In this document: positions 25,927 to 55,929 of the stretch, one piece after another
Numbering within the stretch: position 1 is the stretch's first letter
Layout of the letters: each line of letters begins with the position of its first letter
DNA from: Gammaproteobacteria bacterium
GTDB taxonomy: Bacteria > Pseudomonadota > Gammaproteobacteria > Tethybacterales > Persebacteraceae
Length of the DNA stretch: 64,000 bases
Assembly (NCBI GenBank): GCA_965221835.1
Contig: OZ244916.1
Coordinates: 1,785,643-1,849,642 of the forward strand
Direction of reading: 5' to 3'
Program-made: the position numbers and the translations under genes
The notes under the pieces: model-generated
What the model was told of the DNA's origin: nothing
The model's database searches: none
What the model saw: only the letters and a program-made list of their open reading frames with translations

Positions 25927-26066
25927 GTTCACGGGAATGGAAGATTTTTTCATGATTTTTCCATGTCGCTTTTGTTCACGGGAATGGAAGATTTTTTCAT
26001 GATTTTTTCATGTCGCTTTCGTTCACGGGAATGGAATGTTTTTTCCATGTCGCTTTTCATTTACGG
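25927..26066. repeat. tandem repeat ~47-bp unit x3 (gttcacgggaatggaagattttttcatgatttttccatgtcgctttt), inverted relative to the array at 18415-18603
   Basis: Units at 25927, 25974 and 26021. The core gttcacggRaatggaaga is the reverse complement of the tcttccatttccgtgaac core at 18.4 kb. Confidence 0.75.
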
Positions 26067-34654: not shown

Positions 34655-35299
34655 TTATTCCATCAACGCCGCAGGAATAAATGCACCCAACATTAAAATC
34701 GCTATCGCAATATTAAAAACGCGCACACGAATCGGATTGGCGTGCAGAAATTTTCCGATAGTCGCACCGCAAAATCCCCATATCCACATACACGGCACAT
34801 CCACAAGAAAAAAAGTCGCAGTCATCAAAACCGCCTCCAACACCGCACCGTGTTCTGCCGAAATAAACGCCGCTGTCGCACCGCCGCACATCACCCACGA
34901 TTTTGGATTAATCCACTGAAATGTTGCCATCTGAAAAAATGTCGGCGGTTTTGTCGCCCGCGATTTTTCGGCGTTGCCGGCAGACGCGATTTTCCATGCC
35001 AGCCAACACATAAACACGATACCCGTCCAGCGAAGCACATCGTGCAAAAACGGATAACGGGCGAAAATAAATCCGCCGCCCAACGCCACAATCAGCAGCA
35101 TCGCCGCAAATCCAAAATTCACGCCGAAAATTACCCGCGCCGTTTTAACGAGACCAAAATTAACCGCCGCCGTTGCGATAATCATGGTATTCGGACCGGG
35201 GATTATAGAAGTTGCAAACGCAAACAACGCAATCCCCCCAAAAAAATCCCATCCCGGCATTACCCCCCCTTTCCAATTTTTCACAATAAAAAATTCCAT
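34655..35299 (-). CDS. LysE/RhtB-family amino-acid exporter
   Basis: 6-TM, ~200 aa, IPGPNTM motif region. Confidence 0.75.
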   Translation of the reverse strand: MEFFIVKNWKGGVMPGWDFFGGIALFAFATSIIPGPNTMIIATAAVNFGLVKTARVIFGVNFGFAAMLLIVALGGGFIFARYPFLHDVLRWTGIVFMCWLAWKIASAGNAEKSRATKPPTFFQMATFQWINPKSWVMCGGATAAFISAEHGAVLEAVLMTATFFLVDVPCMWIWGFCGATIGKFLHANPIRVRVFNIAIAILMLGAFIPAALME

Positions 35300-35558
35300 T
35301 ATAAACGAATATAAACGAATCGCTGCCGCATGCTTTTACGGAAAGCAAAAGTAATTTGTTGTATAATGCCGTGCGAGTTTGTTTTTCCGTCTTCCTTTTT
35401 TCATTCCCCAGCGCAGCCGCAATAGAGATATATTTCGTAGATATTGCGCAATAAACCCATTGCGCCTTTTGTCGCAATCAAAACGGAAACATGGTATAAT
35501 TGTTCCGTTGCGGATTCATTTCCGCTTTTAATCCCTACAAATAATAAGGAGAAAAACG

Positions 35559-36041
35559 ATGAACGACAATGATAAGAAATTACTTGCAAATAAGAAATTG
35601 TTTGATGCAATTAAGAAAGGCAAGGAAATAGCCCGAGACGATACCAAAAACAAATTGGATGAATTGAATAAAGAAATCAAGGATCTGATTACTAAAGAAA
35701 ACGCGAGTCCGAATGCGAAAATGGATGACGGTTGGACGGTTTTGATGGAGGCGGCAAATGTCGGAAATCTCGAAATTGCCCAAACTCTGATAAATGCAGG
35801 GGCGAATCCGAATGCGGCGAAGGGCTATGGCTGGACGGCTTTGATGGAGGCGGCATATTACGGACATATGACAATTGTCTCTCTTCTGCTGGAAAAAGTG
35901 GTAAATCGGAATGCGGCATTAAATGCGAATTGGACTGCTTTGGATGCCGCAAATCTGGCGTGGCAAAATGCGAAAACTCCGGAAGAGGCGAAAAAGTTTC
36001 AGACAATTGTGGATATGTTTCAAGGGAAAAAGACGGGATAA
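35559..36041 (+). CDS. ankyrin-repeat protein (no signal peptide)
   Basis: Repeats GWTVLMEAANVGNLEIAQTLINAGANPNA / GYGWTALMEAAYYGH. AAGGAG RBS. Confidence 0.8.
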   Translation: MNDNDKKLLANKKLFDAIKKGKEIARDDTKNKLDELNKEIKDLITKENASPNAKMDDGWTVLMEAANVGNLEIAQTLINAGANPNAAKGYGWTALMEAAYYGHMTIVSLLLEKVVNRNAALNANWTALDAANLAWQNAKTPEEAKKFQTIVDMFQGKKTG

Positions 36042-36044
36042 CAA

Positions 36045-36078
36045 AACCGGCGGGGATTCAATGTCCCCGCTTTTTTTG
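36045..36078 (+). terminator. rho-independent terminator (family hairpin CCGGCGGGGATTCAATGTCCCCGC + T7)
   Basis: GC stem followed by T-run immediately after the ank stop codon. Confidence 0.7.
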
Positions 36079-36111
36079 TATTTCTTTACAAAACCAAAAG
36101 GAAAAATCATT

Positions 36112-36438
36112 ATGAAAATCAAATCTATTATTTTGCCGCTGTTTGCGGTTTTTGTTTTGGGTGTGTCCGGTTGTGCGGACAAATCTGGACCGAAATTACG
36201 CGAAATTGAACGAGTTTCGGAAATGTCGGACGAGGAAATTGCCGCCGCAAGAGAGGCGTGTCATCTTATTTCCACAACCGATTATAACTGTTCAGAATTG
36301 GTAAATCCGATTCACGGAATGACTCCGGACGAATGGAAAATTCTCACCGAATCTACGAAAGAATGTCGCAAAAATCAGTTGCTGTCATTTCATCATTGTC
36401 TGCGAGGAAAAGGCGTACGGTACGCCGAATATAATTAA
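36112..36438 (+). CDS. small lipoprotein (conserved MKIKSIILPLFAVF signal, lipobox LGVSGC)
   Basis: ATG at 36112 with RBS AAAGGAAAAATCATT-ATG. Cys-rich mature part. Confidence 0.65.
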   Translation: MKIKSIILPLFAVFVLGVSGCADKSGPKLREIERVSEMSDEEIAAAREACHLISTTDYNCSELVNPIHGMTPDEWKILTESTKECRKNQLLSFHHCLRGKGVRYAEYN

Positions 36439-36441
36439 GCC

Positions 36442-37551
36442 ATGTTTGCCCGTTATGTTTGGATAATCGCCCCGCTGTTTGCGGCGGGGTGCGGCGGGAT
36501 TAACATTTTGCCGGAACCGTTTACTCGCGAACGGGTGGACGGAAAAATTCCGGTAAAAGTAGAATTGATTCGCAAACAAGTACGGGCGGAGTTGGACGGC
36601 GTTCCAGAAGGCGAAGCGGAAGTTTTGCGATGGCAGGTGATTGAAAAAGATTATAACAAATGCCGTTTGTCATCCGCCCGTGCAACAAAATCGGAAGCGG
36701 AGGAAGTTTTCGCCGTGTGCATGTCCGAACAAGGATATGTTTATATGTTGCCGATTGACGCCGAACAATTTCATTGGGATATTGCGGAAAAAGAGGAGGG
36801 TATTTACGCAGAGGAAAAACGAGTAGCGGAAGAACGCCGAATTGCCGCTGAAAAAGAACTGGAAAAACTCCGAGTTGCCGCCGAAAAAAAAGCGGAAGAG
36901 GAACGAATCGCTGCCGAAAAGAAAGCGGAAGAGGAACGAATTGCTGCCGCTGTAAAAGCGGAACAGGAGCGTTTAGAAAACAATTTGAGAATTTATGCAA
37001 GAGACAATGAATTGTCGGAAGTGCGGCGTTTACTTTCTTTGGGCGTTAATCCTAATGCGGTGAATGATGGCGGTGTGACGGCTTTGATGGGGGCTGCATA
37101 TAATGGACATGCCGAAATTGCGAAAATGCTGTTATCGGCAGGGGCGAATCCGAATGTGGTAAATAAGGACGGCTTGACGGCTTTGATAGTGGCGGGAAAT
37201 AGCGAACATGCCGAAATTGCGAAAATGCTGTTAGACGGCGGTGCGAATCCGAATGCGGCGATTATTAACGGCTGGACGGCTTTGATTTTGGTAGCAAATA
37301 AGGGACATGCCGAAGTTGCGAAAATTTTATTGTCGGCGAGGGCGAATCCGAATGCGGTTGATAATAAAGGTATGACGGCTTTGATGGTAGCAGCATTGAA
37401 AGGACATGCCGAAATTATAAAGATATTGATAGCGGGCGGAGCGGAAGTTAATCAGCGTACGCCCGAAGGAAGTACAGCTTTGAGTTTGGCAAAATATAGG
37501 GGCTTTTCCGAGATTGAACGCATTTTGCGAGCGGCGGGGGCGAAAGAATAA
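36442..37551 (+). CDS. lipoprotein with coiled-coil (AEEERIAAEKKAEEERIAA) and C-terminal ankyrin repeats, ending ERILRAAGAKE
   Basis: Signal/lipobox LFAAGC. 4-5 ANK repeats (TALMGAAYNGHAEIAKMLLSAGANPN...). Confidence 0.8.
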   Translation: MFARYVWIIAPLFAAGCGGINILPEPFTRERVDGKIPVKVELIRKQVRAELDGVPEGEAEVLRWQVIEKDYNKCRLSSARATKSEAEEVFAVCMSEQGYVYMLPIDAEQFHWDIAEKEEGIYAEEKRVAEERRIAAEKELEKLRVAAEKKAEEERIAAEKKAEEERIAAAVKAEQERLENNLRIYARDNELSEVRRLLSLGVNPNAVNDGGVTALMGAAYNGHAEIAKMLLSAGANPNVVNKDGLTALIVAGNSEHAEIAKMLLDGGANPNAAIINGWTALILVANKGHAEVAKILLSARANPNAVDNKGMTALMVAALKGHAEIIKILIAGGAEVNQRTPEGSTALSLAKYRGFSEIERILRAAGAKE

Positions 37552-37588
37552 CGGCGAGGATTCCATTTCCCCGCCGTTTTTTTTTACA
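37552..37588 (+). terminator. rho-independent terminator (family hairpin)
   Basis: acggcgaggattccatttccccgccg + T9. Confidence 0.7.
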
Positions 37589-37609
37589 AAACTAAAATGA
37601 AAAATCATT

Positions 37610-38101
37610 ATGAAAAATGACATAAATAAACAATTGATTAAAGCGTGTATTGACGACAATTTAGAGGAAGTTAATCGTCTAATTGCGGCTGGTGCGAATC
37701 CGAATGTGGTAAATAAGGACGGCTTGACGGCTTTGATATTGGCGGCATTTTATGGATATACCGAAATTGCGAAAGTGTTGTTAGACGGCGGTGCGAATCC
37801 GAATGCGGCGATTATTAACGGCTGGACGGCTTTGATTTTGGCGGCAAATAAGGGACATGCCGAAATTGCGAAAATTCTGTTGTCGGCGGGGGCGAATCCG
37901 AATGGGACGGGTAATGACAACTTGACGGCTTTAATGCGTGCGACAGTGGAAGGATATGCCGAAATTGTAAAGATATTGATAGCTGGTGGAGCGGAAGTTA
38001 ATCAGCGTACGCACGACGGAGTCACGGCTTTGGATCTTGCGAAACATGGGGGCTTTTCCAAGATTGAACGCATTTTGCGGGCGGCGGGGGCGAAAGAATA
38101 G
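37610..38101 (+). CDS. ankyrin-repeat protein, ends ERILRAAGAKE
   Basis: 4 ANK repeats. A degenerate copy of the MKIKSII start lies upstream as a 7-codon ORF (atgaaaaatcattatgaaaaatga). Confidence 0.8.
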   Translation: MKNDINKQLIKACIDDNLEEVNRLIAAGANPNVVNKDGLTALILAAFYGYTEIAKVLLDGGANPNAAIINGWTALILAANKGHAEIAKILLSAGANPNGTGNDNLTALMRATVEGYAEIVKILIAGGAEVNQRTHDGVTALDLAKHGGFSKIERILRAAGAKE

Positions 38102-38136
38102 CGGCGGGGATTCCGTGTCCTCGCCGGTTTTTTTTG
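38102..38136 (+). terminator. rho-independent terminator (family hairpin)
   Basis: cggcggggattccgtgtcctcgccgg + T8. Confidence 0.75.
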
Positions 38137-38185
38137 CGTTTTTACGAATTCGGCGGGATAGGGTTGTTTTCAACCGAAAGAGGAG

Positions 38186-39265
38186 ATGATGGGCGAAAAG
38201 GACAAACAATTTATTAAAGCAATTATAGAATGCGATTTGAATTTGGTCAAGCAACTGATTGATGAAGGTGCGAATCTGAATGCGGTGGATGAATGGAACC
38301 AGCCGGCTTTGTATAATGTGGTAGTACGACGACTTGACGAATTTACGAAAATTCTGATTGCGGCGGGTGCAAATCCAAATGCGGCGAATAAAGACGGCAT
38401 GACGGCTTTGATGTTGGCGGGACAAGAAGGATATACCGAAGTTGCAAAAATGCTGTTGTCGGCGGGGGCGAATCCGAATGCGGCAAATAAATACGGCATG
38501 ACGGCTTTGATGCTTGTGGCATGGAACGGAAATGCCGAAGTTGCCGAGTTGCTGTTATCGGCGGGGGCGGATGTGAATGCGGTGACTGATAAAAGAGATA
38601 GGGCTTTTAATAAAGGCGATACGGCTTTGATGTTTGCGGCAAGGAAAGGACATGAAGTTGCGAAAATACTGTTGTCGGCGGGGGCGAATCCGAATGCGGC
38701 GAATTATGGCGGCTATACGGCTTTGATGCAGGCGGCATCATACAAAAACACCGAAGTTGTAAAAATGCTAATAGCGGCGGGGGCGGATGTGAATGCGGCG
38801 AAGTATGACGGCACAACGGCTTTGAATGGGGCGGCGAATGACGAAATTAGATGCATGTTGCAGGCGGCGGGAGCGAAATTCCGTGTCCCCGCTGTTTTAG
38901 AAAAACAAAAGAATTCCTTTTCTGTTTTTGATTTTATAATGGATATCACTGTTTTTGATATTATCATCACTATCGTCTTATTTGTTATACTTGTTTTACA
39001 AGGTTCAATCGCTTTAATAGTTTTGTCAATTGCGTTGATCTGCTTTCTTGCATTTGCTTTCGTATTTGGTCATGTTTTTTTTCTCGCCGTGGCTTTTGAT
39101 TTTGGAGTTGTCGGCATAATCGCTTATGTTGCCGCATGGATTTTTATGGCTCCCATAATGATAATTTTAGGAGCTGTCGCAGGGGTTATATCTTTTATAG
39201 GGGTTCTTCTAGGATTTCTACCTTTTTTCGAAAAATGGCGGAACTTTGGCGACAAAAATGCGTAA
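38186..39265 (+). CDS. ankyrin-repeat protein with C-terminal ~4-TM membrane domain
   Basis: 6 ANK repeats, then ...LQAAGAKFRVPAVLEKQ... reads through into a hydrophobic 130-aa tail (IITIVLFVILVLQGSIALIVLSIALICFLAFAFVFGHVFFLAVAF...). Confidence 0.75.
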   Translation: MMGEKDKQFIKAIIECDLNLVKQLIDEGANLNAVDEWNQPALYNVVVRRLDEFTKILIAAGANPNAANKDGMTALMLAGQEGYTEVAKMLLSAGANPNAANKYGMTALMLVAWNGNAEVAELLLSAGADVNAVTDKRDRAFNKGDTALMFAARKGHEVAKILLSAGANPNAANYGGYTALMQAASYKNTEVVKMLIAAGADVNAAKYDGTTALNGAANDEIRCMLQAAGAKFRVPAVLEKQKNSFSVFDFIMDITVFDIIITIVLFVILVLQGSIALIVLSIALICFLAFAFVFGHVFFLAVAFDFGVVGIIAYVAAWIFMAPIMIILGAVAGVISFIGVLLGFLPFFEKWRNFGDKNA

Positions 39266-39430
39266 ATTTTTTTTGATTTTCCGCGTGTTTGCGGCATTTT
39301 GATTATCTACCAAATGATTCCGTATATCTACAAAATGCACACCGAAGGGGATATTTAATGGCATAATTGCGAGGCGGGGAAAAGGATTTTCGCCGCATTT
39401 TTTAATCATTATCAAAAAACAAGGAGAAAA

Positions 39431-39940
39431 ATGATGAAGAGTGATTACAAGAAATTGTCCAAAGCCCTGAAAGATGGAAAAGTGGATGACTTTAAGAATT
39501 TGCTTAAAGAGGGCGCAAATCCGAATGCGCCTGATCACCGGCATGAATCGATTCTGCATTTGGCGGTGCGCAAAGGCAATGCCGAAAATTCCGAAATAAC
39601 CGTTGATTATCTGTTAAACAAAGCGGTTAATAAGGCGAATCCGAATACGGCAACGCCGGACGGATGGACGGCTTTGATGGAAGCGGCGCATGTCGGAAAA
39701 TGCAATGTTGCCAAAATTTTGTTAGAAGCGGGGGCGAATCCAAATGCGGCGAAGGGCTACGGTTGGACGGCTTTAATGTCGGCGGCATTTGAGGGACATG
39801 ACAAAGTTGTAGATATTCTGTTGAAACGGGGGGCGAATCCGAATGCCGCATTAAACGCAGATTGGACGGCTTTGTTTTCCGCATATGAAGCCGGACATTC
39901 CAAAGTCGTCAAAATTTTGGAAAAGAAGGCGAAAAAATAA
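39431..39940 (+). CDS. ankyrin-repeat protein (no signal peptide)
   Basis: GWTALMEAAHVGKCNVAKILLEAGANPNAAKGYGWTALMSAAFEGH. AAGGAG RBS. Confidence 0.8.
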   Translation: MMKSDYKKLSKALKDGKVDDFKNLLKEGANPNAPDHRHESILHLAVRKGNAENSEITVDYLLNKAVNKANPNTATPDGWTALMEAAHVGKCNVAKILLEAGANPNAAKGYGWTALMSAAFEGHDKVVDILLKRGANPNAALNADWTALFSAYEAGHSKVVKILEKKAKK

Positions 39941-39944
39941 CAAA

Positions 39945-39980
39945 AATCGGCGGGGATTCCATGTTCCGCCGTTTTATTTA
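39945..39980 (+). terminator. rho-independent terminator (family hairpin)
   Basis: tcggcggggattccatgttccgccg + T-rich. Confidence 0.65.
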
Positions 39981-40003
39981 CAAAACCGAAAGGAAAAATT
40001 ATT

Positions 40004-41008
40004 ATGAAAATCAAATCTATTATTTTGCCGCTGTTTGCGGTTTTTGCGTTGATAGTTTCGCCGTCTGCTTTTACCGATGAAGGCGATGAAGTCCATCAAG
40101 GGCTTTTTGCCAATCCGTTGACGCACGCCTCTGTGCACGGCAATTTGGCGGAAGTTAAGCGGTTGCTTGCGGCGGATGCAAATCCGAATGAGGCGAATGA
40201 TTACGGTACTACGGCTTTAATGTGGGCGACAAGCAAAGGACATGCCGAAGTTGCCGAGTTGCTATTGTCGGCAGGGGCTAATCCGAATGCGGCGAATATT
40301 TACGGCTTTACGGCTTTGCATGATGCAAAATGGGGACATGCCGAAGTTGTCGAGGTTTTGTTGGCGGCGGGGGCGAATCCGAATGCGGAGAATAATGTCG
40401 GCGAGACGGCTTTGATAGTTGTTGTAAGAGAAGGATATACCGAAATGGTAAAAATGATGTTGGCGGCGGGGGCGAATCCGAATGCGGCAACTAATAACGG
40501 CAGGACGGCTTTGATGGGGGCGGCATGGAAAGGACATGCTGAAATTGCCGAGATGTTATTATCGGCAGGGGCGAATCCGAATGCGGCAACTAATAACGGC
40601 AGGACGGCTTTGATGGGGGCGGCAAGGAACGGACATGCCGAAGTTGCGAAAATGCTGTTGTCGGCGGGGGTAGATGTTAATGCGGCGATTGATGAAGGTA
40701 CAACGGCTTTGATGCTGACTGCATGGAAAGGACATGCTGAAATTGCCGAGATGTTATTATCGGCAGGGGCGAATCCGAAGGTGACGGATAAATCGGGCAA
40801 AACGGCTTTGATGTGGGCGGTAAGAAGAGGAAATGCCGAAGTTACCGAGATATTGTTGGAAGAGGATACGTATTTGTATGCAACAGATAAGGAAGGCAAA
40901 AACGTTTTGGATTATGCAAACGAAGAATGGTCGGAAGCGAAAACGCAAGAAGAAGCATTGGAGTATAAGCGGATTGTAGAAATGTTGCGGGCGGCGGGGG
41001 CGAAATAA
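40004..41008 (+). CDS. secreted ankyrin-repeat protein (signal peptide MKIKSIILPLFAVFALIVSPSAF), ends MLRAAGAK
   Basis: 8 ANK repeats including two near-identical units (NNGRTALMGAAWKGHAEIAEMLLSAGANPNAAT x2). Confidence 0.8.
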   Translation: MKIKSIILPLFAVFALIVSPSAFTDEGDEVHQGLFANPLTHASVHGNLAEVKRLLAADANPNEANDYGTTALMWATSKGHAEVAELLLSAGANPNAANIYGFTALHDAKWGHAEVVEVLLAAGANPNAENNVGETALIVVVREGYTEMVKMMLAAGANPNAATNNGRTALMGAAWKGHAEIAEMLLSAGANPNAATNNGRTALMGAARNGHAEVAKMLLSAGVDVNAAIDEGTTALMLTAWKGHAEIAEMLLSAGANPKVTDKSGKTALMWAVRRGNAEVTEILLEEDTYLYATDKEGKNVLDYANEEWSEAKTQEEALEYKRIVEMLRAAGAK

Positions 41009-41012
41009 CAAA

Positions 41013-41048
41013 AACCGGCGGGGATTTCGTGTCTCCGCCGTTTTTTTA
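41013..41048 (+). terminator. rho-independent terminator (family hairpin)
   Basis: ccggcggggatttcgtgtctccgccg + T7. Confidence 0.75.
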
Positions 41049-41067
41049 ATAATCAAAAAGGATAACA

Positions 41068-41289
41068 ATGAATAAAATTCTGAAATTCATCCTTTCGCCG
41101 GTTATTATTCCGACTGCTTTTGCGAAATCGGCGAAAAACAGCAAGGTGATGCGGGTGTTGCTATATCTATACTTGCTTGTTTTCGTTTTGACTACTCCGT
41201 ATGCATGGCTTTTCGGGCTTATTCCATTATTTATTCATTTGTTATTCTTTCTGCATAAAGTAATGATGAAGGTCATTAACGAAGAATGA
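41068..41289 (+). CDS. small hydrophobic membrane protein (73 aa, 2 TM)
   Basis: ORF followed by a family terminator hairpin at 41293-41327. Confidence 0.45.
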   Translation: MNKILKFILSPVIIPTAFAKSAKNSKVMRVLLYLYLLVFVLTTPYAWLFGLIPLFIHLLFFLHKVMMKVINEE

Positions 41290-41292
41290 CAA

Positions 41293-41327
41293 AACCGGCG
41301 GGGATTTCGAATCCTCGCCGTTTTTTA
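41293..41327 (+). terminator. rho-independent terminator (family hairpin)
   Basis: ccggcggggatttcgaatcctcgccg + T6. Confidence 0.7.
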
Positions 41328-41350
41328 CAAAACCAAAAGGAAAAATCATT

Positions 41351-41416
41351 ATGAAAATCAAATCTATTATTTTGTCGCTGTTTGCCGCCGTGTTTGCGGC
41401 GGGGTGTGGGCGGTGA
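41351..41416 (+). pseudogene. frameshifted lipoprotein signal-peptide segment (MKIKSIILSLFAAVFAAGCGR-stop) upstream of, and out of frame with, the next ankyrin gene
   Basis: Conserved family start plus lipobox AAGC terminates after 21 codons. The ANK ORF continues in another frame from 41404/41416. Confidence 0.55.
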
Positions 41417-42597
41417 TGGCGTCTTTTGTAGGTAAAATTTTACATTCTATGGTGGGGAATGGATTAACACCATTCGCTCAACTAATGCTTTGGCTGGGTA
41501 CGAATCCGAATGCGGCAGTGGATGACGGATTTACGGCTTTGATGTCGGCGGCATTTGACGGAAATGCCAAAATTGCCAAGTTGCTGTTGACAGCAGGGGC
41601 GAATCCGAATGCGGTGACTAATGACGGCAGGACGGCTTTAATGGCGGCGGCAATCAAAGGACATGCCGAAGTTGCGAAAGTGTTGTTAGACGGCAAGGCG
41701 AATCAGAATGCGGCGGCTAATAAAAGCGTGACGGCTTTGATGGTGGCGGCAGGGGAAGGACATACCGAGGTTGCGAAAGTGTTGTTAGACGGCGGGGCGA
41801 ATCTGAATGCAGCGAATGATGACGGCTATACGGCTTTGATGTTGGCGGCAGTGGAAGGACATGCCGAAGTTGCGAAAGTTCTGATTGCGGCGGGGGCGAA
41901 TCCGAATGCGGCGAATGATAGTGGCAATACGGCTTTGCATTTGGTGGCAGTTAAAGGGCATGCTGAAGTTGCGAAAATACTGTTAGCGGCGGGGGCGAAT
42001 CCGAATGCGGCGAGAGATGGCGGCTGGACGGCTTTAATGTTTGCGGCAATTGACGGACATGCCGAAGTTGCGAAAGTATTGTTAGACGGCGGGGCAAATC
42101 CGAATGCGGCGGGTAATAACGGCGAAACAGCTTTGGGAGGGGCGGCAAAAATAGGACATGCCGAAGTTGCTAAAATTCTATTATCGGCGGGGGCGAATCC
42201 GAATGCAGTGGACAACGACAGCTGGACGGCTTTGAGGTGGGCAGCATATAAGGGACATACCGAAGTTGCGAAAATTCTGTTATCGGCGAGGGCGAATCCG
42301 AATGCGGCGAATGATTACGGCGATACGGCTTTGATACTTGCATCAATATCAGGACATTCCGAAGTTGCGAAAATTCTGATTGCGGCGAAGGCGAATCCGA
42401 ATGCGACGGATAATAACGGCAGGACGGCTTTGATTCAGGCAGTAGATAAAGGACATGCCGAAATTGTAAAGATATTGATAGCGAGTGGAGCGGAAGTTAA
42501 TCAGCGTACGTCCAAAGAATTCACAGCTTTGGGTATAGCGAAAGCACTCGGCTTTTCCAAGATTGAACGCATTTTGCGGGCGGCGGGGGCGAAGTAG
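41416..42597 (+). CDS. ankyrin-repeat protein (11 repeats), ends ERILRAAGAK; signal peptide disrupted by frameshift
   Basis: ORF track start 41404 is GTG. First ATG is 41416. Repeats TALMxAAxxGHAEVAKVLLDGGANPNAA throughout. Confidence 0.75.
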   Translation: MASFVGKILHSMVGNGLTPFAQLMLWLGTNPNAAVDDGFTALMSAAFDGNAKIAKLLLTAGANPNAVTNDGRTALMAAAIKGHAEVAKVLLDGKANQNAAANKSVTALMVAAGEGHTEVAKVLLDGGANLNAANDDGYTALMLAAVEGHAEVAKVLIAAGANPNAANDSGNTALHLVAVKGHAEVAKILLAAGANPNAARDGGWTALMFAAIDGHAEVAKVLLDGGANPNAAGNNGETALGGAAKIGHAEVAKILLSAGANPNAVDNDSWTALRWAAYKGHTEVAKILLSARANPNAANDYGDTALILASISGHSEVAKILIAAKANPNATDNNGRTALIQAVDKGHAEIVKILIASGAEVNQRTSKEFTALGIAKALGFSKIERILRAAGAK

Positions 42598-42680
42598 CAT
42601 AATCTAACTTTGGCGGCGGTCGCTTTGTTTCATCGGCGGGCGATTGCTTTTTATTCATTCTATCCGAAAGGAGAATTACG

Positions 42681-43364
42681 ATGAACGAAAACGACACAAA
42701 TTTATTTAATGCGATTAAACTCAACAAAGATCCGGAAGAGGTCAAGCGTCTGATTAAGGCGGGGGCGAATCCGAATGCCGTGGATGATGACGAATTGACG
42801 GCTTTGATGTGGGTGGCGTGGGGCGGAGGAGGCAAAGAAGAGAAAGTAAGATTGCCCGACAATACTCGGAATTGCGTAGGGCGTATCGGTTGGACTATTT
42901 TGCCCGCAGATCCCAGAAAAGAAGATGCCGAAATAGCCGAAGTATTGTTATCGGAGAAAGCGGAGCCCAATGCGGCAAGAAGTGATGGCATCACAGCATT
43001 GATGATGGCAGCGTATAACGGACATGCCGAAGTTGTCAAGATGTTGTTGTCGGCGGGGGCGAATGTGGATGCGGCGAATGATGACGGCGTGACGGCTTTG
43101 ATGGCGGCGGCACAAGAAGGGTATACCGAAGTTGTCAAAATTTTGATTGCGGCGGGTGCAAATCTAAATGCGGCGGATAAAGACGGCTGGACGACTTTGA
43201 TGTTTGCGGCACAAAAAGGGCATACCGAAGTTGCTGAAATTCTGTTGTCGGTGGAGGCGAATCCGAATACGGAAAATAAATACGGCAGGACGGCTTTGGA
43301 TATTGCGGAAGAAGAGGGGCATGACGAATTCATCCGCATTTTGGAAGAGGCGGGGGCGGAATAA
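42681..43364 (+). CDS. ankyrin-repeat protein (no signal peptide)
   Basis: GITALMMAAYNGHAEVVKMLLSAGANVDAANDDGVTALMAAAQEGYTEVVKILIAAGANLNA. AAGGAG RBS. Confidence 0.8.
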   Translation: MNENDTNLFNAIKLNKDPEEVKRLIKAGANPNAVDDDELTALMWVAWGGGGKEEKVRLPDNTRNCVGRIGWTILPADPRKEDAEIAEVLLSEKAEPNAARSDGITALMMAAYNGHAEVVKMLLSAGANVDAANDDGVTALMAAAQEGYTEVVKILIAAGANLNAADKDGWTTLMFAAQKGHTEVAEILLSVEANPNTENKYGRTALDIAEEEGHDEFIRILEEAGAE

Positions 43365-43368
43365 CAAA

Positions 43369-43404
43369 AACCGGCGGGGATTTCGTGTCCTCGCCGGTTT
43401 TTTG
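43369..43404 (+). terminator. rho-independent terminator (family hairpin)
   Basis: ccggcggggatttcgtgtcctcgccgg + T6. Confidence 0.75.
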
Positions 43405-43709
43405 CGGGGATTTGGGGGTTTTGTTCTGAATTCGCAATTTGCTCTTGATATTTGTCGGGCGGGGCGGTTGGGGATTTGGGGGGATTTTCGCGTTCGCGAG
43501 AATGGAATTGGGGTTGCCGAAAAATGTTTATGCGTTGCGGGCGTTTTTGCGTCCGAATTGGCGGATTTTTCGCGCAAATAAAGCGTTTTTTTCCGATTCC
43601 GGCGGGGCAAATCGTGCGGGCGGCGATTATCCGGCGGCGGCATTTTTCTTAAAACGGAGTCGGCGGACGGACGGGCGTGCATTAAACAGGCGATTCGTAT
43701 TAAAATTGA

Positions 43710-43766
43710 AAAATGACAATGCTAAATAACATTCTTTCCATTTTGATTTGGTTTCCGATTGCGGGC
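43710..43766. repeat. 57-bp direct repeat: duplicated 5' end of nuoM (second copy 46076-46132 is the real gene start)
   Basis: aaaaatgacaatgctaaataacattctttccattttgatttggtttccgattgcggg is identical at both positions. Brackets the RM1 insertion. Confidence 0.85.
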
Positions 43767-43807: not shown

Positions 43808-45187
43808 ATGAAAATTGACATTGAAAAATTGAAACGCGAGTTGTATGAAATGGATGCCTTGCGCAAAAAAGATGATGTGCAGTGCGACACGGCGGGGCGT
43901 ATTGAGCCGCAATATTTTGACGGCGATTTGTCGGAGTTGGGATTGTCGCCGAAAGTCGCCGAGGCGATGCGCAAAGAGTTGGGCGACAAAAAATTGTATC
44001 AACATCAGGCGGATGCGATTCGGGCATCAATGCGGGGCGACAATGTCGTTTTGGAATCCCCGACCGCAAGCGGCAAAACGCTATCATTCACCGCCCCGAT
44101 GCTGGAAAGCGTTTGCGGCGGCGGCGGCTGGCGAATTATTTGCGGCGAATGTATTTCCGTCTTAAAACAATTGCCGGACAAATCCGCCAATTTAATTTTC
44201 GCCGACCCGCCGTACAATTTGCAATTAAAAAACGAGTTATACCGCCCGAACATGACTCGCGTGGACGGCGTTTCCGATTCGTGGGACAAGTTTGCATCTT
44301 TTGCGGAATATGATATTTTTTGCGATTCGTGGTTGCGCGAATGTCGCCGCGTTTTGGCGGATGACGGCGCGATTTGGGTAATCGGTACTTATCACAACAT
44401 CGGGCGTTTGTCGCGTCTTATGCAGGATTTGGGTTTTTGGATGCAAAACGATGTGATTTGGCACAAGACGAATCCGATGCCGAATTTTCGCGGCGTGCGG
44501 TTTACGAATGCAACTGAAACTTTATTGTGGGCGAAAAAATCGGAAAAATCACGCGCGGTTTTCAATCACAAAAAAATGAAAGCGGAAAACGGCGGCAAAC
44601 AAATGACGAATGTTTGGCGTTTTCCGATTTGCGGCGGGGCGGAGCGTTTGCGCGATGCGGCGGGAAAGAAATTGCATTCAACACAAAAACCGGAATCGCT
44701 TTTGCGGCGAATCATTCTCGCAACAAGCCGCCCGGGCGATGTCGTATTGGATCCTTTTTCCGGCAGCGGCACGACGGTCGCGGTCGCGCGTTCTTTGCAA
44801 AGAATCGGAATCGGCATAGAACGCGAAAAAAAATATATCACAATTTCGGCAAAACGAATCGCCGCAATTGTACCGGAGGAAATTCCCGCCGAAGATTCCG
44901 CCCCCGCCCCTCGCCGCGTACCGTTTTCGGAATTGATTGCGCGCGGATTAATTAAACCCGGCGAAACTTTGTATTCAAGCAACGGCAAATCACGCGCGCA
45001 AGTTTTGCAAAACGGCGACATTAAAATTAATGGCGCGATTAACGCCGAAGGTTCCATCCACAAAATCGGCGCGAAAGCCGCGGGGACTCCGTCTTGCAAC
45101 GGCTGGAATTTTTGGTACGCGAAAACTGACGGCGGCAAAGTGTTGCTGAACGATTTGCGCGAACGGGCGCGAAAAACGGAGGCGTAA
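43808..45187 (+). CDS. beta-class DNA methyltransferase (DPPY...FSGSGTT order) carrying an in-frame N-terminal ~98-aa fragment of a DEAD/DEAH-box helicase; probable MTase start at ATG 44101
   Basis: Residues 60-98 LYQHQADAIRASMRGDNVVLESPTASGKTLSF = helicase Q-motif plus Walker A. From MLESV onward it is a typical ~360-aa MTase: IICGECISVLKQLP, LIFADPPYNL, LDPFSGSGTT. Confidence 0.8.
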   Translation: MKIDIEKLKRELYEMDALRKKDDVQCDTAGRIEPQYFDGDLSELGLSPKVAEAMRKELGDKKLYQHQADAIRASMRGDNVVLESPTASGKTLSFTAPMLESVCGGGGWRIICGECISVLKQLPDKSANLIFADPPYNLQLKNELYRPNMTRVDGVSDSWDKFASFAEYDIFCDSWLRECRRVLADDGAIWVIGTYHNIGRLSRLMQDLGFWMQNDVIWHKTNPMPNFRGVRFTNATETLLWAKKSEKSRAVFNHKKMKAENGGKQMTNVWRFPICGGAERLRDAAGKKLHSTQKPESLLRRIILATSRPGDVVLDPFSGSGTTVAVARSLQRIGIGIEREKKYITISAKRIAAIVPEEIPAEDSAPAPRRVPFSELIARGLIKPGETLYSSNGKSRAQVLQNGDIKINGAINAEGSIHKIGAKAAGTPSCNGWNFWYAKTDGGKVLLNDLRERARKTEA

Positions 45188-45190: not shown

Positions 45191-46084
45191 ATGAATTATG
45201 ATCAATTTTCCCGCCTTATTAACCGTACTGTTTTCTCCGATTCCAAGGTGAAACTGTTGCGGAGCATCGCTCGTCAACCGGAGAATTTTGTCGGACTTTT
45301 CCGACCGACGACGCCGGAGGTGAAAATTGCCCAAAATTTATCTCAATCTCATGAGATTAAGTTCGGCTACGCATTTGAGGAATTGGTGCGCCTGTATCTC
45401 AAAGAAAACGGATGTCAAATATTTGATTCTTCTATTGTCATTGATGGCAAAAGAAAAGATTTGGATATTTATTTTCGCAAGGATGGTAAGGATTATCTCG
45501 TGGAGCAAAAGACGCGGGATAACCACGACTCCACGAAAAAGCTCGGGCAAGCCGATGACTTTGAGAAAAAATTGGTAGCGGTGTCCGATGGCGGAAAAAA
45601 AGCGGTGTGCGGCGTTCTATTCTTTTTAGACCCCGGTATGTCCAAAAACAAAATATTCTATGAAGAGCGTCTGCCCGAGATTACACAGCGACACGGACTC
45701 GAGACGCGCCTCGTATATGGCGGGGAATTTTTTAATATGTTGTCGTTGGATGTTTGGGATGAGATTGAAAAGTATCTCATTCGGTGGCGCGCGGAATTGC
45801 CGGGATTCCCGGAATTTAACTATGACCGAAATCCGGAGGAAAGTTTTAACGAAATCAAAGACATGAGTCCCGCTGATTTTTGTAAAATTTTCACGCACGA
45901 AGAAATAGGCAAACACATTCTGCCGATTCTCTTTCCGGAGCAAAAAACGCTTAAAATGTTGGTTGACTATTGGGCGTGCAAACCCGAAGGCGTTCGGGCG
46001 CGCAAATCTGACGGCGTTCGCATTTCCCGGTTAATAAATGAACGAATTTCGGAGATGTTGCGGGCGGCGGGGACGAAAAAATGA
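45191..46084 (+). CDS. putative type II restriction endonuclease (PD-(D/E)xK)
   Basis: D-x13-EQK pattern (KDLDIYFRKDGKDYLVEQKTRD). Position immediately 3' of the MTase. C-terminal codons share ttgcgggcggcgggg-cgaaa with the ank gene 3' ends. Stop overlaps nuoM ATG (ATGA). Confidence 0.55.
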   Translation: MNYDQFSRLINRTVFSDSKVKLLRSIARQPENFVGLFRPTTPEVKIAQNLSQSHEIKFGYAFEELVRLYLKENGCQIFDSSIVIDGKRKDLDIYFRKDGKDYLVEQKTRDNHDSTKKLGQADDFEKKLVAVSDGGKKAVCGVLFFLDPGMSKNKIFYEERLPEITQRHGLETRLVYGGEFFNMLSLDVWDEIEKYLIRWRAELPGFPEFNYDRNPEESFNEIKDMSPADFCKIFTHEEIGKHILPILFPEQKTLKMLVDYWACKPEGVRARKSDGVRISRLINERISEMLRAAGTKK

Positions 46085-47565
46085 CAATGCTAAATAACAT
46101 TCTTTCCATTTTGATTTGGTTTCCGATTGCGGGGGGGGTGGTGGTGTTGGTTTGCGGGGCGGCGGGGGTTTGTCCGTACCGAATTAAGGCGGGCGGGATT
46201 GCGGTATCGGGTGCGGCGTTTTTGATTTCGTTGCCGCTGTTTTTTATGTTTGATAGCGGCACGGCGGCGATGCAATTTGTTGAAGATGCTGCGTGGATAG
46301 ACCGGTTTAATATCCGCTACGGGTTGGGCGTGGACGGCTTTTCAATGCTGATGATTTTGCTGAATACTTTTACGACCGTGCTTGTTTTGGCGGCGTGCTG
46401 GCAATCGGTGCAGACGCGGGTTGCAGGTTATGTGGCGGCATTTTTGATGATGTCGGGGCTGACAAACGGCGTTTTTGCGGCGACCGATGCGGCGTTGTTT
46501 TATGTTTTTTGGGAGGCGACTCTCATTCCGCTGTTTATTGTCATCGGCGTTTGGGGCGGCGAACGGCGCGTTTATGCGGCGATTAAATTCTTTTTGTATA
46601 CGCTTGTCGGTTCGTTGCTGATGCTGATTGCGCTTTTGTATTTATACAACGAAACCGGCGATTTTTCTATCGCATCTTTTCACGATGTGCCGATTTCCAT
46701 GACTGCACAAACATTTTTATTTTTCGCATTTTTGGCGGCGTTTGCGGTAAAAGTGCCGATGACGCCTGTGCATACTTGGTTGCCGGATGCGCATGTGGAG
46801 GCGCCGACAGGCGGTTCTATTGTGCTGGCGGCGGTGATGTTAAAACTCGGCGCGTACGGATTTTTGCGTTTTTCGTTGCCGGTCGCCCCCGATGCGAGTG
46901 TGGAATTCGCGTGGCTGATTATCGCGTTGTCTTTGGCGGCGATTGTTTATATCGGCTTGGTTGCGCTGGTGCAAGATGATATGAAAAAACTCATCGCCTA
47001 TTCGTCGGTTGCGCACATGGGATTTGTAACGCTTGGATTTTTTCTGTTTGACGAACTCGGAATGAAAGGCGGAATCGCGCAAATGGTGTCGCACGGTTTT
47101 GTATCGGGCGCGATGTTTTTCGGCGTGGGCGTGGTATATGACCGGATGCATACGCGCAAAATTGCGGACTACGGCGGCATTGCAAACACGATGCCGAAAT
47201 ATGCGGCGTTTATGATGTTGTTTGCGATGGCGAATGCGGGATTGCCCGGCACGAGCGGATTTGTCGGCGAGTTTATGGTGATTTTGGCGGCGGTGCGCAC
47301 CGATTTATGGATAGGATTGTTGTGCGCAACGACTTTAATTACCGGCGCGGCGTATACTTTGTGGATGTACAAACGCGTCTTTTTCGGCGAAATCGCAAAC
47401 GATGCGGTGCGCGAAATGCGCGATGCAACACCGCGCGAAATATTAATAATGTCGCTTTTCGCCGCGCTGATAATGCTGATGGGATTGTGGCCGTTTCCAT
47501 TTCTGGAAACGCTGGACGCAACAACCGCGAATCTACTCGCCCATGTGCGGGAGGGGAAGTTGTGA
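46081..47565 (+). CDS. nuoM: NADH-quinone oxidoreductase subunit M
   Basis: 14-TM antiporter-like subunit. MTMLNNILSILIWFPIAGG..., WLPDAHVEAPTGGS. Confidence 0.92.
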   Translation: MTMLNNILSILIWFPIAGGVVVLVCGAAGVCPYRIKAGGIAVSGAAFLISLPLFFMFDSGTAAMQFVEDAAWIDRFNIRYGLGVDGFSMLMILLNTFTTVLVLAACWQSVQTRVAGYVAAFLMMSGLTNGVFAATDAALFYVFWEATLIPLFIVIGVWGGERRVYAAIKFFLYTLVGSLLMLIALLYLYNETGDFSIASFHDVPISMTAQTFLFFAFLAAFAVKVPMTPVHTWLPDAHVEAPTGGSIVLAAVMLKLGAYGFLRFSLPVAPDASVEFAWLIIALSLAAIVYIGLVALVQDDMKKLIAYSSVAHMGFVTLGFFLFDELGMKGGIAQMVSHGFVSGAMFFGVGVVYDRMHTRKIADYGGIANTMPKYAAFMMLFAMANAGLPGTSGFVGEFMVILAAVRTDLWIGLLCATTLITGAAYTLWMYKRVFFGEIANDAVREMRDATPREILIMSLFAALIMLMGLWPFPFLETLDATTANLLAHVREGKL

Positions 47566-48551
47566 ACAACGCGACCGCCGTTTCCTTTTTTAATGATTCG
47601 CGGAATGCGGCGGCGTTCGCGCCGTCCGACAACAAGCGGGCGGACGGGCGATATTACACGCGCGGCGATCCGTTTTCGCATGCGGCGTTTTGCGAATGGG
47701 CGCGCGTTGCCGGACTGCCGCAAGCGAAAGTTTTGGAACCGTTTGCCGGCGCGAACAATTTAATTAAGACGTTGCGCGCTGCCGGTTTGTGCGAAACATT
47801 CGCGGCGTTTGATATTTTGCCCGGCGACAAATCTGTCAAACGGCGCGATACGCTGGCGGATTTTCCGCGCGGCTTTAATGTCTGCATTACAAATCCGCCG
47901 TGGCTGGCGCGCAACTCTGCGACCCGCCGCGGATTGCCGTATCCGCAAACTCGCTACGACGATTTGTACAAACATTGTCTCGCCGAGTGTCTCGCGCATT
48001 GCGGTTATGTTGCCGCGTTGGTGCCGGAATCGTTTATTCGCGGCGGTTTGTTTACGCCGCGCCTTTCGGCGTTTGTTTCGCTGAACAACGGCATGTTCGC
48101 CGATACCGAACATCCGGTCGGACTCGCGCTTTTTGTCCCGCGCGCGCTCAATACTATTTTATATTGCGGCGCGACAAAAATCGGCGAGTTGCGGCGGTTG
48201 CGCGAATATTGCCCGCCCGCATCCCGCGATGGCGGCGGCGTTTCGTTCAATTCGCCGGACGGCAATTTGGGATTGATTGCGTTGGATAATAATTTTTGCG
48301 CGAGCATTCGTTTTTGCGAAGCGGCGGAGTTGGACGGTTACGAAGTGCGACAAAGTTGCCGCGCGATTACCAAAATTCGCGTTCCCGGACGCCCGCAAAT
48401 CGGCGCGTATAATCGTTTTATCAATTCCTTTCGCAAAAACACGATGGATGTTTTTTTAACGGCATATCGCGGTTTGCGCAAAGACGGATTTTACCGCCGC
48501 CGTTTGGATTACGCGCTAGCGCGGGATATTATTTCTTATGTCGGATTCTAA
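47562..48551 (+). CDS. gamma-class N6-adenine DNA methyltransferase (FxGxG then NPPW)
   Basis: Motif I VLEPFAGANN, motif IV VCITNPPWLA. GTG start overlapping the nuoM stop (GTGA). ORF track start 47307 overlaps nuoM and is rejected. Confidence 0.75.
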   Translation: MNNATAVSFFNDSRNAAAFAPSDNKRADGRYYTRGDPFSHAAFCEWARVAGLPQAKVLEPFAGANNLIKTLRAAGLCETFAAFDILPGDKSVKRRDTLADFPRGFNVCITNPPWLARNSATRRGLPYPQTRYDDLYKHCLAECLAHCGYVAALVPESFIRGGLFTPRLSAFVSLNNGMFADTEHPVGLALFVPRALNTILYCGATKIGELRRLREYCPPASRDGGGVSFNSPDGNLGLIALDNNFCASIRFCEAAELDGYEVRQSCRAITKIRVPGRPQIGAYNRFINSFRKNTMDVFLTAYRGLRKDGFYRRRLDYALARDIISYVGF

Positions 48552-49242
48552 AATGCCGCCGCCGGATTGGGAGGGAGAAGCGATGCGCAAAATGTGGCGC
48601 AAAAACGCCGCTGCTGTGCCGTCCGAAGTTGAGACAGGCGACAGCGGGATGATGAAAAAAATCGCGACTTATTGCGATAACTTCGGTTATGCTGCGCGGG
48701 AAGTTATTGCCAAAATTTCCGGCGATAAAATGTTTGCCGCGCACTTTGCCAAAAATCCTGGTACTCAAGGAATTCACGAACAAATCGCTGCCGATTATTT
48801 ACAAAAAATTTCCCTGGTCGGAAATTTTGAGATTTTGCCGAGAAGCGGAAAGGATGCGCTGTTTATCAATGCGCGAGGCGAATTGTTAAAGCGCAAAGAC
48901 AAATCGCAAACGAGTGCGCAAGATTCTAAATCGCTGGATTTTTGTTGGAAAACCGGCGGATTTGTCTGCTACGCGAGTCACAAGTATACGAAAGAATCGG
49001 GCGGGGCGCAAGACCATCAATTTCGCGATCAAAAACGGTTTCTGGAAAATTTTCGCGAACATAATAATCCGCGGGCGGCGTGTTTTGCGATTTGCGATGG
49101 CGCATTTTACACCGAAGAAAAAATGCAGGAGTTGGAAAGTGTGACGCGCAAAAAACCGCCGATAAGTTTCGCCGTACATATTGAAGATGTCGCCGAAAAT
49201 TTGCAAAAACTTGCGGCATTAAAGGATAATTCGCTACAATGA
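48538..49242 (+). CDS. hypothetical protein, candidate restriction endonuclease partner of the preceding MTase
   Basis: Overlaps MTase 3' end by 14 nt. No clear catalytic motif (possible D-x12-SHK). Assignment by context only. Confidence 0.4.
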   Translation: MSDSKMPPPDWEGEAMRKMWRKNAAAVPSEVETGDSGMMKKIATYCDNFGYAAREVIAKISGDKMFAAHFAKNPGTQGIHEQIAADYLQKISLVGNFEILPRSGKDALFINARGELLKRKDKSQTSAQDSKSLDFCWKTGGFVCYASHKYTKESGGAQDHQFRDQKRFLENFREHNNPRAACFAICDGAFYTEEKMQELESVTRKKPPISFAVHIEDVAENLQKLAALKDNSLQ

Positions 49243-55846: not shown

Positions 55847-55909
55847 CCGCCGCCCGATTCCATTCCCGCCCGCTTAATTTTCGCGTAAAATGTGCGGTTT
55901 TACCCCGTC

Positions 55910-55929
55910 ATTCCCGCGAACGCGGGAAT
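55910..55929. repeat. dRS3-type repeat ATTCCC-N8-GGGAAT
   Basis: attcccgcgaacgcgggaat followed by tttaccgacaaatcc, as in the 58.36 kb copy. Confidence 0.7.

Follow-up and report, generated by a model that had tools for sequence, protein, structure and literature searches.

The 64-kb window analysed here (64,000 nt of contig OZ244916.1, from a bacterial genome of ~1.98 Mb) carries a tandem array of genes for ankyrin-repeat (ANK) proteins, and comparison with four sister strains firmly establishes this array as a strain-level hypervariable, recombining tandem locus of ANK cassettes in an otherwise conserved chromosome. As to function, we give a probability of about one half to the reading that the array encodes strain-hypervariable, eukaryote-like ANK binding proteins for host interaction, by analogy with the ANK proteins of sponge symbionts.

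Pfam ANK repeats were identified (E-values 1e-22 to 1e-85) in eight co-oriented open reading frames (ORFs) on the + strand between 35559 and 43404, which bears out an earlier description of the locus from the DNA letters and ORF list (hereafter the sequence-only reading) as eight ANK genes in one orientation. The eight genes stand, but two non-ANK genes, L2 and M8, also lie within the block, which thus comprises ten + strand genes (Table 1). On the left the block is bounded by a divergent LysE-family gene (34655-35299, - strand). The array DNA has a periodicity of 99 nt with more than 30 repeat units, and its GC content is 42–50%, against ~58% in the upstream flank.

Variation of the array between strains

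The four sister strains, L077, L078, L079 and L080, are conspecific with the bacterium of the window and come from a single ENA assembly (ERZ25072152, 57x–630x coverage), one contig of which is circular (1,999,211 bp). The Mfd encoded in the window has 100% identity to a protein of a 1,984,335-bp contig, which also encodes P0005, the database protein identical to A10. Fifteen variants of Mfd, 98.5–100% identical and falling into one 90% cluster, were found on contigs of 0.05–3.2 Mb. We compared five versions of the array, that of the window and those in 23-kb loci of the four sister strains. All share the frame NtrC–Mfd–LysE (- strand)–array–helicase slot–nuoM, the slot being occupied in the sister strains by a DEAD/MZB helicase. 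A comparison of array composition between strains had been suggested in the sequence-only reading, and its result is clear: the flanks are ~98% identical (the left one collinear with the window at 97.9% over 13.7 kb, the right one at 98.6%), whereas the arrays, of 4.7–8.5 kb, have a different gene set in each strain. Alignable segments shared with the window array are 84–91% identical, and their order is changed.

The array of L077 contains an ortholog of A1 (gene B1, 80% amino acid (aa) identity), a new 166-aa ANK gene, a gene for a 323-aa exported ANK protein, M8, an A5-like gene with ANK repeats and a transmembrane (TM) region, a chimeric A6 and a 324-aa gene that nearly duplicates the 323-aa one; a further ANK gene belongs to a module on the - strand. 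The array of L078 is a shorter version of this one. That of L079 opens with a different gene and also encodes a lipoprotein of 516 aa with ~13 repeats, an exported ANK protein of 227 aa and, on the - strand, an ANK-trypsin-like lipoprotein. L080 has a 78-aa remnant, a 122-aa non-ANK protein with an MKIKS leader, a helix-turn-helix gene, an ortholog of A3 with the MKIKSIIL leader in place of A3's own, M8, an ANK+TM gene and one more ANK gene. The ANK-trypsin gene of L079 (17277-18994 of that locus) encodes a 424-aa lipoprotein in which ANK repeats are fused to a trypsin-like protease. The end of this gene and the start of an ANK gene of 148 aa overlap, an arrangement reminiscent of an effector/partner pair; a degraded 64-aa fragment of the protease gene is present in L077, and the gene is absent from the window.

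Substitution rates separate the array from its surroundings in the same way. Between the window and L077 (Nei-Gojobori method), the flanking genes Mfd, LysE and NtrC have synonymous rates (dS) of 0.03–0.05 and nonsynonymous rates (dN) of 0.002–0.005, with dN/dS of 0.04–0.13, and the ANK genes of the array have dS of 0.20–0.50, dN of 0.12–0.33 and dN/dS of 0.33–0.81. Relatives with 71% and 63% Mfd identity possess no ANK array after mfd and none of the modules described below.

Several genes are mosaics. Gene B6 of L077 is A6-like (96–100% identity) over ~360 nt and then matches its neighbour B2 at 98–100%. Gene B3 of the same strain matches B7 at 97–100%, mostly 100%, over the first ~720 nt, and then the 3' end of A7 of the window at 98–100%; this match covers the 3' 230 nt of A7, the 5' part of which reaches only 44–93%. 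Within the window, the 3' 450 nt of A4 are 86.5% identical to the 3' part of A3. Many of the homology blocks end at the junctions between genes (36038/36070, 38102/38134, 41030, 41326 and 43351/43363). The view of the locus as a recombination-prone cassette family therefore withstands the comparison, given four strains with differing arrays, mosaic genes and block ends at the junction modules.

Junction modules and the ends of the cassettes

All cassettes are complete genes, with a start codon and a ribosome-binding site (RBS; that of A4 is mutated) of their own, and most also have an intrinsic terminator. Seven GC-rich hairpins (-13 to -27 kcal/mol), each followed by a T-run, lie 3' of A1, A3, A4, A6, A7, M8 and A10. 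They had been attributed to seven ANK genes; the count of seven hairpins is right, but they belong to six ANK genes and M8, A5 and A9 being followed by other sequence (in A9 by a different, weaker hairpin). To call the terminators near-identical was too strong, since the 42 nt past the stop codons are 55–86% identical in pairwise comparison (mean 70%). With GC stems of 9–11 bp, a length of 23–25 nt and T-runs, they are ordinary intrinsic terminators. Where 0.01 matches would be expected by chance, the hairpin motif has eight in the window: seven in the array, where one hairpin is matched in both orientations and the weakest is missed, and a chance match in mfd. In an alignment of 21 copies 90.5% of the cells are paired, with no covariation above that of shuffles, which therefore gives no independent proof of selection on the hairpin structure. 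An interpretation of the hairpins as repetitive extragenic palindromes or miniature inverted-repeat transposable elements was rejected, as none occur outside the arrays. Rfam and tRNA scans of the 64-kb window found nothing.

Located 3' of four hairpins is a 27-nt RBS module, TTTACAAAACCAAAAGGAAAAATCATT, followed by an ATG (four matches against 0 expected), and in three of the four copies (ATGs at 36112, 40004 and 41351) the module runs on into codons for MKIKSIIL(P/S)LFA. The sequence-only reading assigned this leader to three ANK genes. Three DNA copies do exist, but the only intact ANK gene to carry it is A7; the other copies head L2 and an ORF of 21 codons that is out of frame with A9, the A9 junction lying just past the lipobox Cys codon of this ORF. 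The MKIKS leader also heads the 122-aa non-ANK protein of L080, from which we conclude that the leader module is common to unrelated cargo; that protein (14626-14994 of the L080 locus) has a weak full-length match to HdeA/HdeB, acid-stress chaperones of the periplasm, with an E-value of 0.009, below the cut-off. A3 has a signal peptide of its own, of lipoprotein type (MFARYVWIIAPLFAAGC). Manual inspection revealed a lipobox in A3 and in the out-of-frame leader before A9, a type I signal peptide in A7, and no signal peptide in A1, A4, A5, A6 and A10. For these five genes strong AAGGAG RBSs had been claimed, which holds in AGGAG-type form for four (A1, A5, A6 and A10) and fails for A4, where the site is mutated. 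The sequence TTTACA-17-CATTAT in the leader matches a sigma-70 promoter at 9–10 of 12 positions, but was rejected because the ATG overlaps with its -10 element and because promoter-like sites, with 16 found and 15 expected, show no enrichment. A scan of JGI metagenomes with the leader module gave 0 matches.

The C-terminal tails are less uniform than first described. At least five were said to be identical; A3, A4 and A9 indeed share IERILRAAGAK, but A7 and A10 are only similar, and A1 and A6 differ. The shared tail is the truncated last ANK repeat, a C-cap. Accordingly, the picture of conserved ends around divergent cores fits the 5' leader (84–88% identity) and is only weakly supported at the 3' end, where the tails have a mean identity of 63%; pairwise identity of ANK repeat DNA between genes of the window genome has a mean of 68% and a maximum of 89%. 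Each of the five arrays has the hairpin, leader, signal-peptide and tail motifs, which the 23-kb sister loci contain at no other place; a motif scan of the window outside the array gave only two chance hairpin matches and a tail relic in a restriction endonuclease (REase) gene. This relic, a piece of an ANK cassette fused to the REase gene (Table 1), is further evidence that cassette ends recombine; the helicases that occupy the corresponding slot in the sister strains lack the ANK tail.

The gene lists of the window array and the four sister versions include no integrase, transposase, recombinase or phage gene, and turnover is thus best explained by homologous recombination and unequal crossing-over. 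We infer that these ordinary processes act at modules of ~40–120 nt and within the 99-nt repeats. Diversification of the array by a diversity-generating retroelement, using the reverse transcriptase at 5229, was considered and rejected, because this enzyme belongs to a type VI retron located 30 kb away. A scan of IMG/VR with A4 found no relatives, which leaves a phage ('ankyphage') origin unsupported.

A5 combines an ANK domain with a hydrophobic C-terminal region, and its ORF contains, at 38858-38898, a relic cassette tail and a degenerate hairpin, which points to an old fusion. An accidental read-through was rejected, as the same ANK+TM architecture is conserved in two sister strains (L077 and L080), and we regard A5 as an established gene. 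We found no homology between M8 and the hydrophobic tail of A5; M8 itself has dN of 0.009 and dS of 0.076 between the window and L077. Between A5 and A6 lies a 138-nt segment (39240-39377) that is 95–96% identical to one in L077, L078 and L079, where it adjoins a different gene module on the - strand, as another portable junction might.

Table 1. Features of the array, its junction modules and other loci of the window.
Feature	Position	Strand	Description
A1	35559-36041	+	160-aa ANK protein without signal peptide; Pfam Ank_2 1e-22; AAGGAG RBS at 35546-35551
L2	36112-36438	+	108-aa lipoprotein (MKIKSIILPLFAVFVLGVSGC); non-ANK; no Pfam match
A3	36442-37551	+	369-aa lipoprotein, lipobox LFAAGC; N-terminal domain and 5 ANK repeats; three 33-nt EERIAAEKKA repeats; tail IERILRAAGAKE
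A4	37610-38101	+	163-aa ANK protein without signal peptide
A5	38186-39265	+	359 aa; N-terminal ANK domain (6 repeats), C-terminal hydrophobic region of ~107 aa
A6	39431-39940	+	169-aa ANK protein without signal peptide; AAGGAG RBS; related to A1
A7	40004-41008	+	334-aa ANK protein, predicted exported; signal peptide MKIKSIILPLFAVFALIVSPSA; 7-8 repeats; tail VEMLRAAGAK
M8	41068-41289	+	73-aa predicted hydrophobic membrane protein; non-ANK; no Pfam match
A9	41404-42597	+	397-aa ORF, 11 ANK repeats; tail IERILRAAGAK; frameshift at junction splits leader off
A10	42681-43364	+	227-aa ANK protein without signal peptide; AGGAG RBS; tail IRILEEAGAE; identical to database protein P0005
Hairpin T1 with T-run	36049-36071	+	-21.7 kcal/mol, z -6.4; collinearity with L077/L078 stops here
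Hairpin T2	37552-37576	+	after A3
Hairpin T3	38102-38126	+	after A4; homology blocks with L077 and L080 begin here
Hairpin T4	39948-39971	+	after A6; weakest copy, -13.2 kcal/mol
Hairpin T5	41016-41040	+	after A7
Hairpin T6	41296-41320	+	after M8
Hairpin T7	43372-43396	+	after A10; -26.6 kcal/mol; right-hand collinearity with all four sister strains resumes
Leader module, copy 1	36085-36111	+	TTTACAAAACCAAAAGGAAAAATCATT, RBS included; also in L079 and L080
Leader module, copy 2	37583-37609	+	RBS mutated to AAAATGAAAA; precedes A4
Leader module, copy 3	39977-40003	+	precedes A7
Leader module, copy 4, with orphan lipoprotein signal ORF	41324-41416	+	ATG 41351; MKIKSIILSLFAAVFAAGCGR*; A9 out of frame
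ANK cassette tail relic	46058-46084	+	3' end of REase gene, ...EMLRAAGTKK*; matches tail TTGCGGGCGGCGGGGGCGAAA with at most 2 mismatches over the last ~27 nt
Methyltransferase	43808-45187		retains the first ~106 helicase residues
REase	45191-46084		profile covers only residues 1-262
Type VI retron reverse transcriptase	5229-6134		
HKD+Snf2 helicase	8224-11595		
Type IIG restriction-methylase	11606-15193		
DUF4325 gene	15389-15715		
SocA/Panacea antitoxin-like gene	16858-17346		partner gene 16322-16861

Repeats and the putative binding surface

The repeats follow the consensus xDGxTALMxAAxxGHxEVAKxLLxAGANPNAxx. Among 33 complete repeats G3, T5, A6, L7, A10, G14, E17, L22, L23, A27 and N30 are nearly invariant, and the highest entropy is found at positions 1, 2, 4, 9, 12, 13 and 33. 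Positions 1, 2, 4, 12 and 13 (counted with G at 3) are presumably positions 2, 3, 5, 13 and 14 of the designed ankyrin repeat protein (DARPin) libraries, which we take to be the canonical concave target-binding surface (Binz et al. 2003). At six surface codons chosen a priori dN/dS is 1.35, against 0.60 elsewhere, as calculated from 66 non-independent pairs of close repeats (80–99% identical) from the five strains; the concentration of replacements on the putative binding surface is thus suggestive but not significant.

The 60 best matches listed among solved structures are eukaryotic ankyrins and DARPins; the array products are consensus-type ANK proteins. In NCBIfam, PADLOC and PHROGs we found only partial matches over generic repeats, far under the curated cut-offs. 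The closest ANK homologs outside the species (P0001 and P0002, 55–57% identity) are encoded by single genes in housekeeping contexts and not in arrays.

A proposed repertoire of host-binding proteins

The phylogenetic placement of the bacterium bears on the function of the array. The next relatives of its Mfd come from metagenome-assembled genomes (MAGs) at 68–73% identity, and the closest named one (57%) is from Ca. Persebacteraceae bacterium Df01 of the order Tethybacterales; Mfd proteins of free-living Burkholderiales, Rhodocyclaceae and Gallionella reach only 40–46%. Persebacteraceae belong to Ca. Tethybacterales, whose described members are dominant symbionts of sponges and of a nudibranch (PMC8546597, PMC13393909). 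From this one marker, together with the population structure, we infer that the organism is a small-genome symbiont of a marine invertebrate.

Sponge symbionts are strongly enriched in ANK proteins, which are expressed and, when produced as recombinant proteins, modulate amoebal phagocytosis (PMC4850255, PMC4453008, each with reference to Nguyen et al. 2014). The array resembles them in that it encodes multiple small ANK-only proteins, some with Sec signal peptides, in an uncultured and probably symbiotic proteobacterial lineage; ANK expansion is a signature of this lifestyle. It differs in that host association is here deduced from the relatives, and binding to host proteins or an effect on phagocytosis would be ascribed to its products by analogy. 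The study by Nguyen, Liu and Thomas (2014) is reportedly the source for these eukaryote-like proteins. Tandem cassettes with shared modules and complete reshuffling among co-occurring strains are not described in the papers cited here; in Ca. Synechococcus spongiarum the ANK complement is reported to be constant, at four per genome (PMC4453008).

We favour host interaction because the nearest named relatives are invertebrate symbionts, because ANK expansion is a classic signature of symbionts (with the sponge examples being expressed and altering amoebal phagocytosis), because several cassettes are predicted to be exported, and because the variation falls on the putative binding surface. Cassettes are joined by short conserved modules consisting of a hairpin, a T-run and an RBS, with or without the MKIKSIIL signal codons, and co-occurring strains have gained, lost, duplicated and recombined them, with breakpoints at these modules and inside the 99-nt repeats. 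In the mechanism that we propose, homologous recombination and unequal crossing-over would drive this turnover, with no site-specific recombinase taking part. The products would have three destinations: A3, A7, L2 and, before its frameshift, A9 would be exported through Sec or as lipoproteins, A5 would enter the inner membrane, and A1, A4, A6 and A10 would stay in the cytoplasm. They may bind host proteins and interfere, for instance, with phagocytic processing, as the ANK proteins of sponge symbionts do, and selection for varied binding specificity could then keep the repertoires of the strains distinct.

Several points weigh against this interpretation. The signal-less half of the proteins has no visible exit route, and the window contains no type III, IV or VI secretion system (T3SS, T4SS, T6SS); the lipoproteins may simply stay in the periplasm. 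The overall dN/dS below 1, the frameshift of A9 and the damaged RBS of A4 fit relaxed constraint or decay, and the excess of dN/dS at the surface codons is reached by 14% of random sets of six codons. The low GC content of the array could reflect a foreign origin or only the codon composition of ANK repeats. The link to Tethybacterales is provided by a single marker, Mfd, at 57%, and host association is deduced from it. Finally, the array adjoins a variable defence slot, with restriction-modification (R-M) genes here and a BrxH/DruE-like helicase in the sister strains.

No genomic signature of sponge and other invertebrate symbionts is cited more often than ANK eukaryote-like proteins. The locus described here probably belongs with the known expansions of such proteins in symbionts, with unusually clear cassette turnover at the strain level, and it represents a compact natural experiment, with one frame, at least five co-occurring alleles, mapped breakpoints and variation focused on the putative binding surface. 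If the cassettes are expressed in the host, comparison of strains could show which of them are relevant to persistence and whether host recognition keeps the diversity.

Other bacteria offer partial parallels. The Dot/Icm Ank effectors of Legionella and Coxiella (T4SS_AnkH, AnkY, AnkG) are likewise ANK proteins thought to bind host targets, and their NCBIfam models do match the array repeats weakly, with scores of 20–150 bits against cut-offs of 450–1400 (the best being 152 against 600, for AnkH); unlike the tandem array, which has no T4SS in the window, they are dispersed single genes with extra domains. The ank genes of Wolbachia and the amplified ANK families of Orientia and Amoebophilus are highly variable between close strains, through changes in repeat number and recombination, and are mostly dispersed or linked to prophages and mobile elements. 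The present locus, in contrast, is a single tandem array flanked by housekeeping genes on the chromosome, and no phage, transposase or integrase gene lies in it.

Alternative explanations

A different emphasis would be placed on the junctions themselves. If the locus were a recombinase-independent cassette-exchange system, the combination of terminator, RBS and MKIKSIIL codons would let co-resident strains swap exported modules, both ANK and non-ANK, in an analogue of contingency loci or antigenic variation that serves host (or phage) recognition under frequency-dependent selection within one host, and the envelope or secreted ANK proteins on display would differ from strain to strain. We consider this possible but rather unlikely. 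Cassette systems with conserved boundaries include integrons, the recombinase-associated orphan-immunity (rAID) arrays of Bacteroidales and the pilS, maf and tps loci of Neisseria. Co-oriented cassettes, short, conserved and partly palindromic junctions, and strain-variable content are common to these systems and the array. However, no intI or other recombinase gene was found in the window or the four strains, and the junction hairpins are intrinsic terminators and not attC sites; also, the array cassettes are complete, with their own RBS, start and stop, whereas those of the pilS/maf/tps type are silent and partial, and neither an expression locus nor a toxin gene accompanies the array.

The array could also be recombination debris, that is, duplicated ANK genes with little or no function that churn neutrally and persist in a variable slot through recombination between tandem repeats. 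Such decay would account for dN/dS of 0.3–0.8, compared with 0.04–0.13 in the flanks, and for the various damaged parts: the out-of-frame leader of A9, the RBS of A4, the relic tail and terminator inside A5, the degraded ANK-trypsin gene of L077 and the ANK tail relic fused to the REase gene; the number of promoter-like sites, no higher than expected, agrees with it as well. Neutral churning is nevertheless unlikely, in view of the eight ANK ORFs that have remained open over 160–397 codons despite high divergence, of repeats in which framework residues are strongly conserved and the surface is variable, and of the conservation of M8 and the ANK+TM architecture between strains. Moreover, small symbiont genomes rarely retain 8 kb of junk, and every strain has an array.

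The sequence-only reading proposed an island of orphan-immunity or decoy genes. In this scenario exported ANK lipoproteins would neutralise periplasmic toxins, for example Tle6-type T6SS lipases, the cytosolic ones would neutralise or activate cytoplasmic toxins, and the variation between strains would reflect an arms race among bacteria. There is a precedent in Tli, an ankyrin lipoprotein that neutralises the T6SS lipase Tle6 of Enterobacter cloacae: Tle6 lipases are invariably paired with an ankyrin-repeat lipoprotein, and Tli occurs in periplasmic and cytosolic forms (PMC11470151; bioRxiv 10.1101/2023.03.28.534661). Like this ANK-only lipoprotein, the array offers both kinds of product, mixing predicted lipoproteins with signal-less proteins (and A9 has lost its leader); turnover between strains is also seen in immunity islands, and the small ANK gene that overlaps the ANK-trypsin gene of L079 recalls an effector-immunity pair. 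Tli, however, is a single gene directly downstream of the lipase in a T6SS-associated locus. Our search for toxin and secretion genes, which covered the 64-kb window and the four sister-strain arrays (out of a genome of ~1.98 Mb), detected no toxin, toxin remnant (C-terminal or other), Rhs/CdiA/MafB, VgrG/Hcp/PAAR or T6SS gene in the window or in any of the five arrays, and no alpha/beta-hydrolase lipase or toxin domain, so that no lipase, toxin or T6SS gene lies near the array in five strains. Furthermore, all members are of one consensus-like ANK type and not of the diverse folds of immunity proteins, Tli is absent among the 60 best solved-structure matches listed, and the genome, of ~2 Mb, comes from what is probably a dominant symbiont population of many strains, a situation in which expansions of ANK genes are generally linked with the host. 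We thus find immunity still harder to maintain than debris, and the case warns against calling ANK arrays immunity islands from sequence alone.

The weakest explanation, a role of the ANK proteins in phage defence or counter-defence through sensing or sequestering of phage proteins, could draw on the occurrence of ANK domains in some candidate defence systems, on the adjoining slot (type II R-M here, a BrxHI/SngC/DruE-like DEAD/MZB helicase in the sister strains), on other defence systems at 4–17 kb of the window and on partial PADLOC matches to PDC-M72A, 'Ankyrin' and MzaA, but it is very improbable, as these matches cover only the generic ANK part of larger proteins (model positions ~200–390 of 392, ~710–830 of 880 or ~15–90 of 683; for MzaA 131 bits against a cut-off of 800), no ANK gene of the window carries an effector domain (nuclease, TIR, protease or sigma factor), an intracellular phage sensor would have little use for signal peptides and lipoboxes, and IMG/VR yielded no relative.

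Other genes and loci of the window

L2 belongs to a family of small lipoproteins restricted to this MAG clade (46 clusters, 51–99% identity), whose conservation is much above that of the ANK genes. The mature part has four invariant Cys residues, as Cys-x9-Cys and Cys-x10-Cys, and is predicted to form a CHCH-like helical hairpin, for which no fold match was found. The 90% cluster of L2 occurs on several contigs per strain, and the window genome has a second copy (the gene is multi-copy); the copy in the array is therefore probably a captured duplicate.

A further ANK gene of the window (60789-61631, - strand) had been counted as a ninth paralogue of the array. We found that it encodes a TPLH-type ANK protein with a predicted signal peptide, and that it has normal GC content and none of the array modules; it is an ANK protein of a different kind.

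To the right of the array, a type II R-M pair replaces most of the 758–774-aa DEAD/MZB helicase of the four sister strains. On either side of the slot lies a copy of a perfect 57-bp direct repeat, which corresponds to the 5' end of nuoM (43709-43765 and 46077-46133). Beyond it, nuoM (46081-47565) and nuoN (49239-50696) are ~1.7 kb apart, with a Tsp45I-like ORF (48538-49242) between them, and there is no nuoL upstream of nuoM; variable inserts seem to have interrupted or rearranged the nuo operon. A defence island of lower GC content occupies 4300-17400 (Table 1).

Short intergenic repeats of 75–143 nt, 93–95% identical, are located at 22288-22363, 25927-26049 and 58159-58301 of the window and at 244-744 and 4678-4798 of the L077 locus. 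Their translations contain '...PA.AGI...' and '...FPLSRE' strings, typical of small dispersed repeat elements, and they are crossed by long spurious ORFs, for example at the start of 55892-58105.

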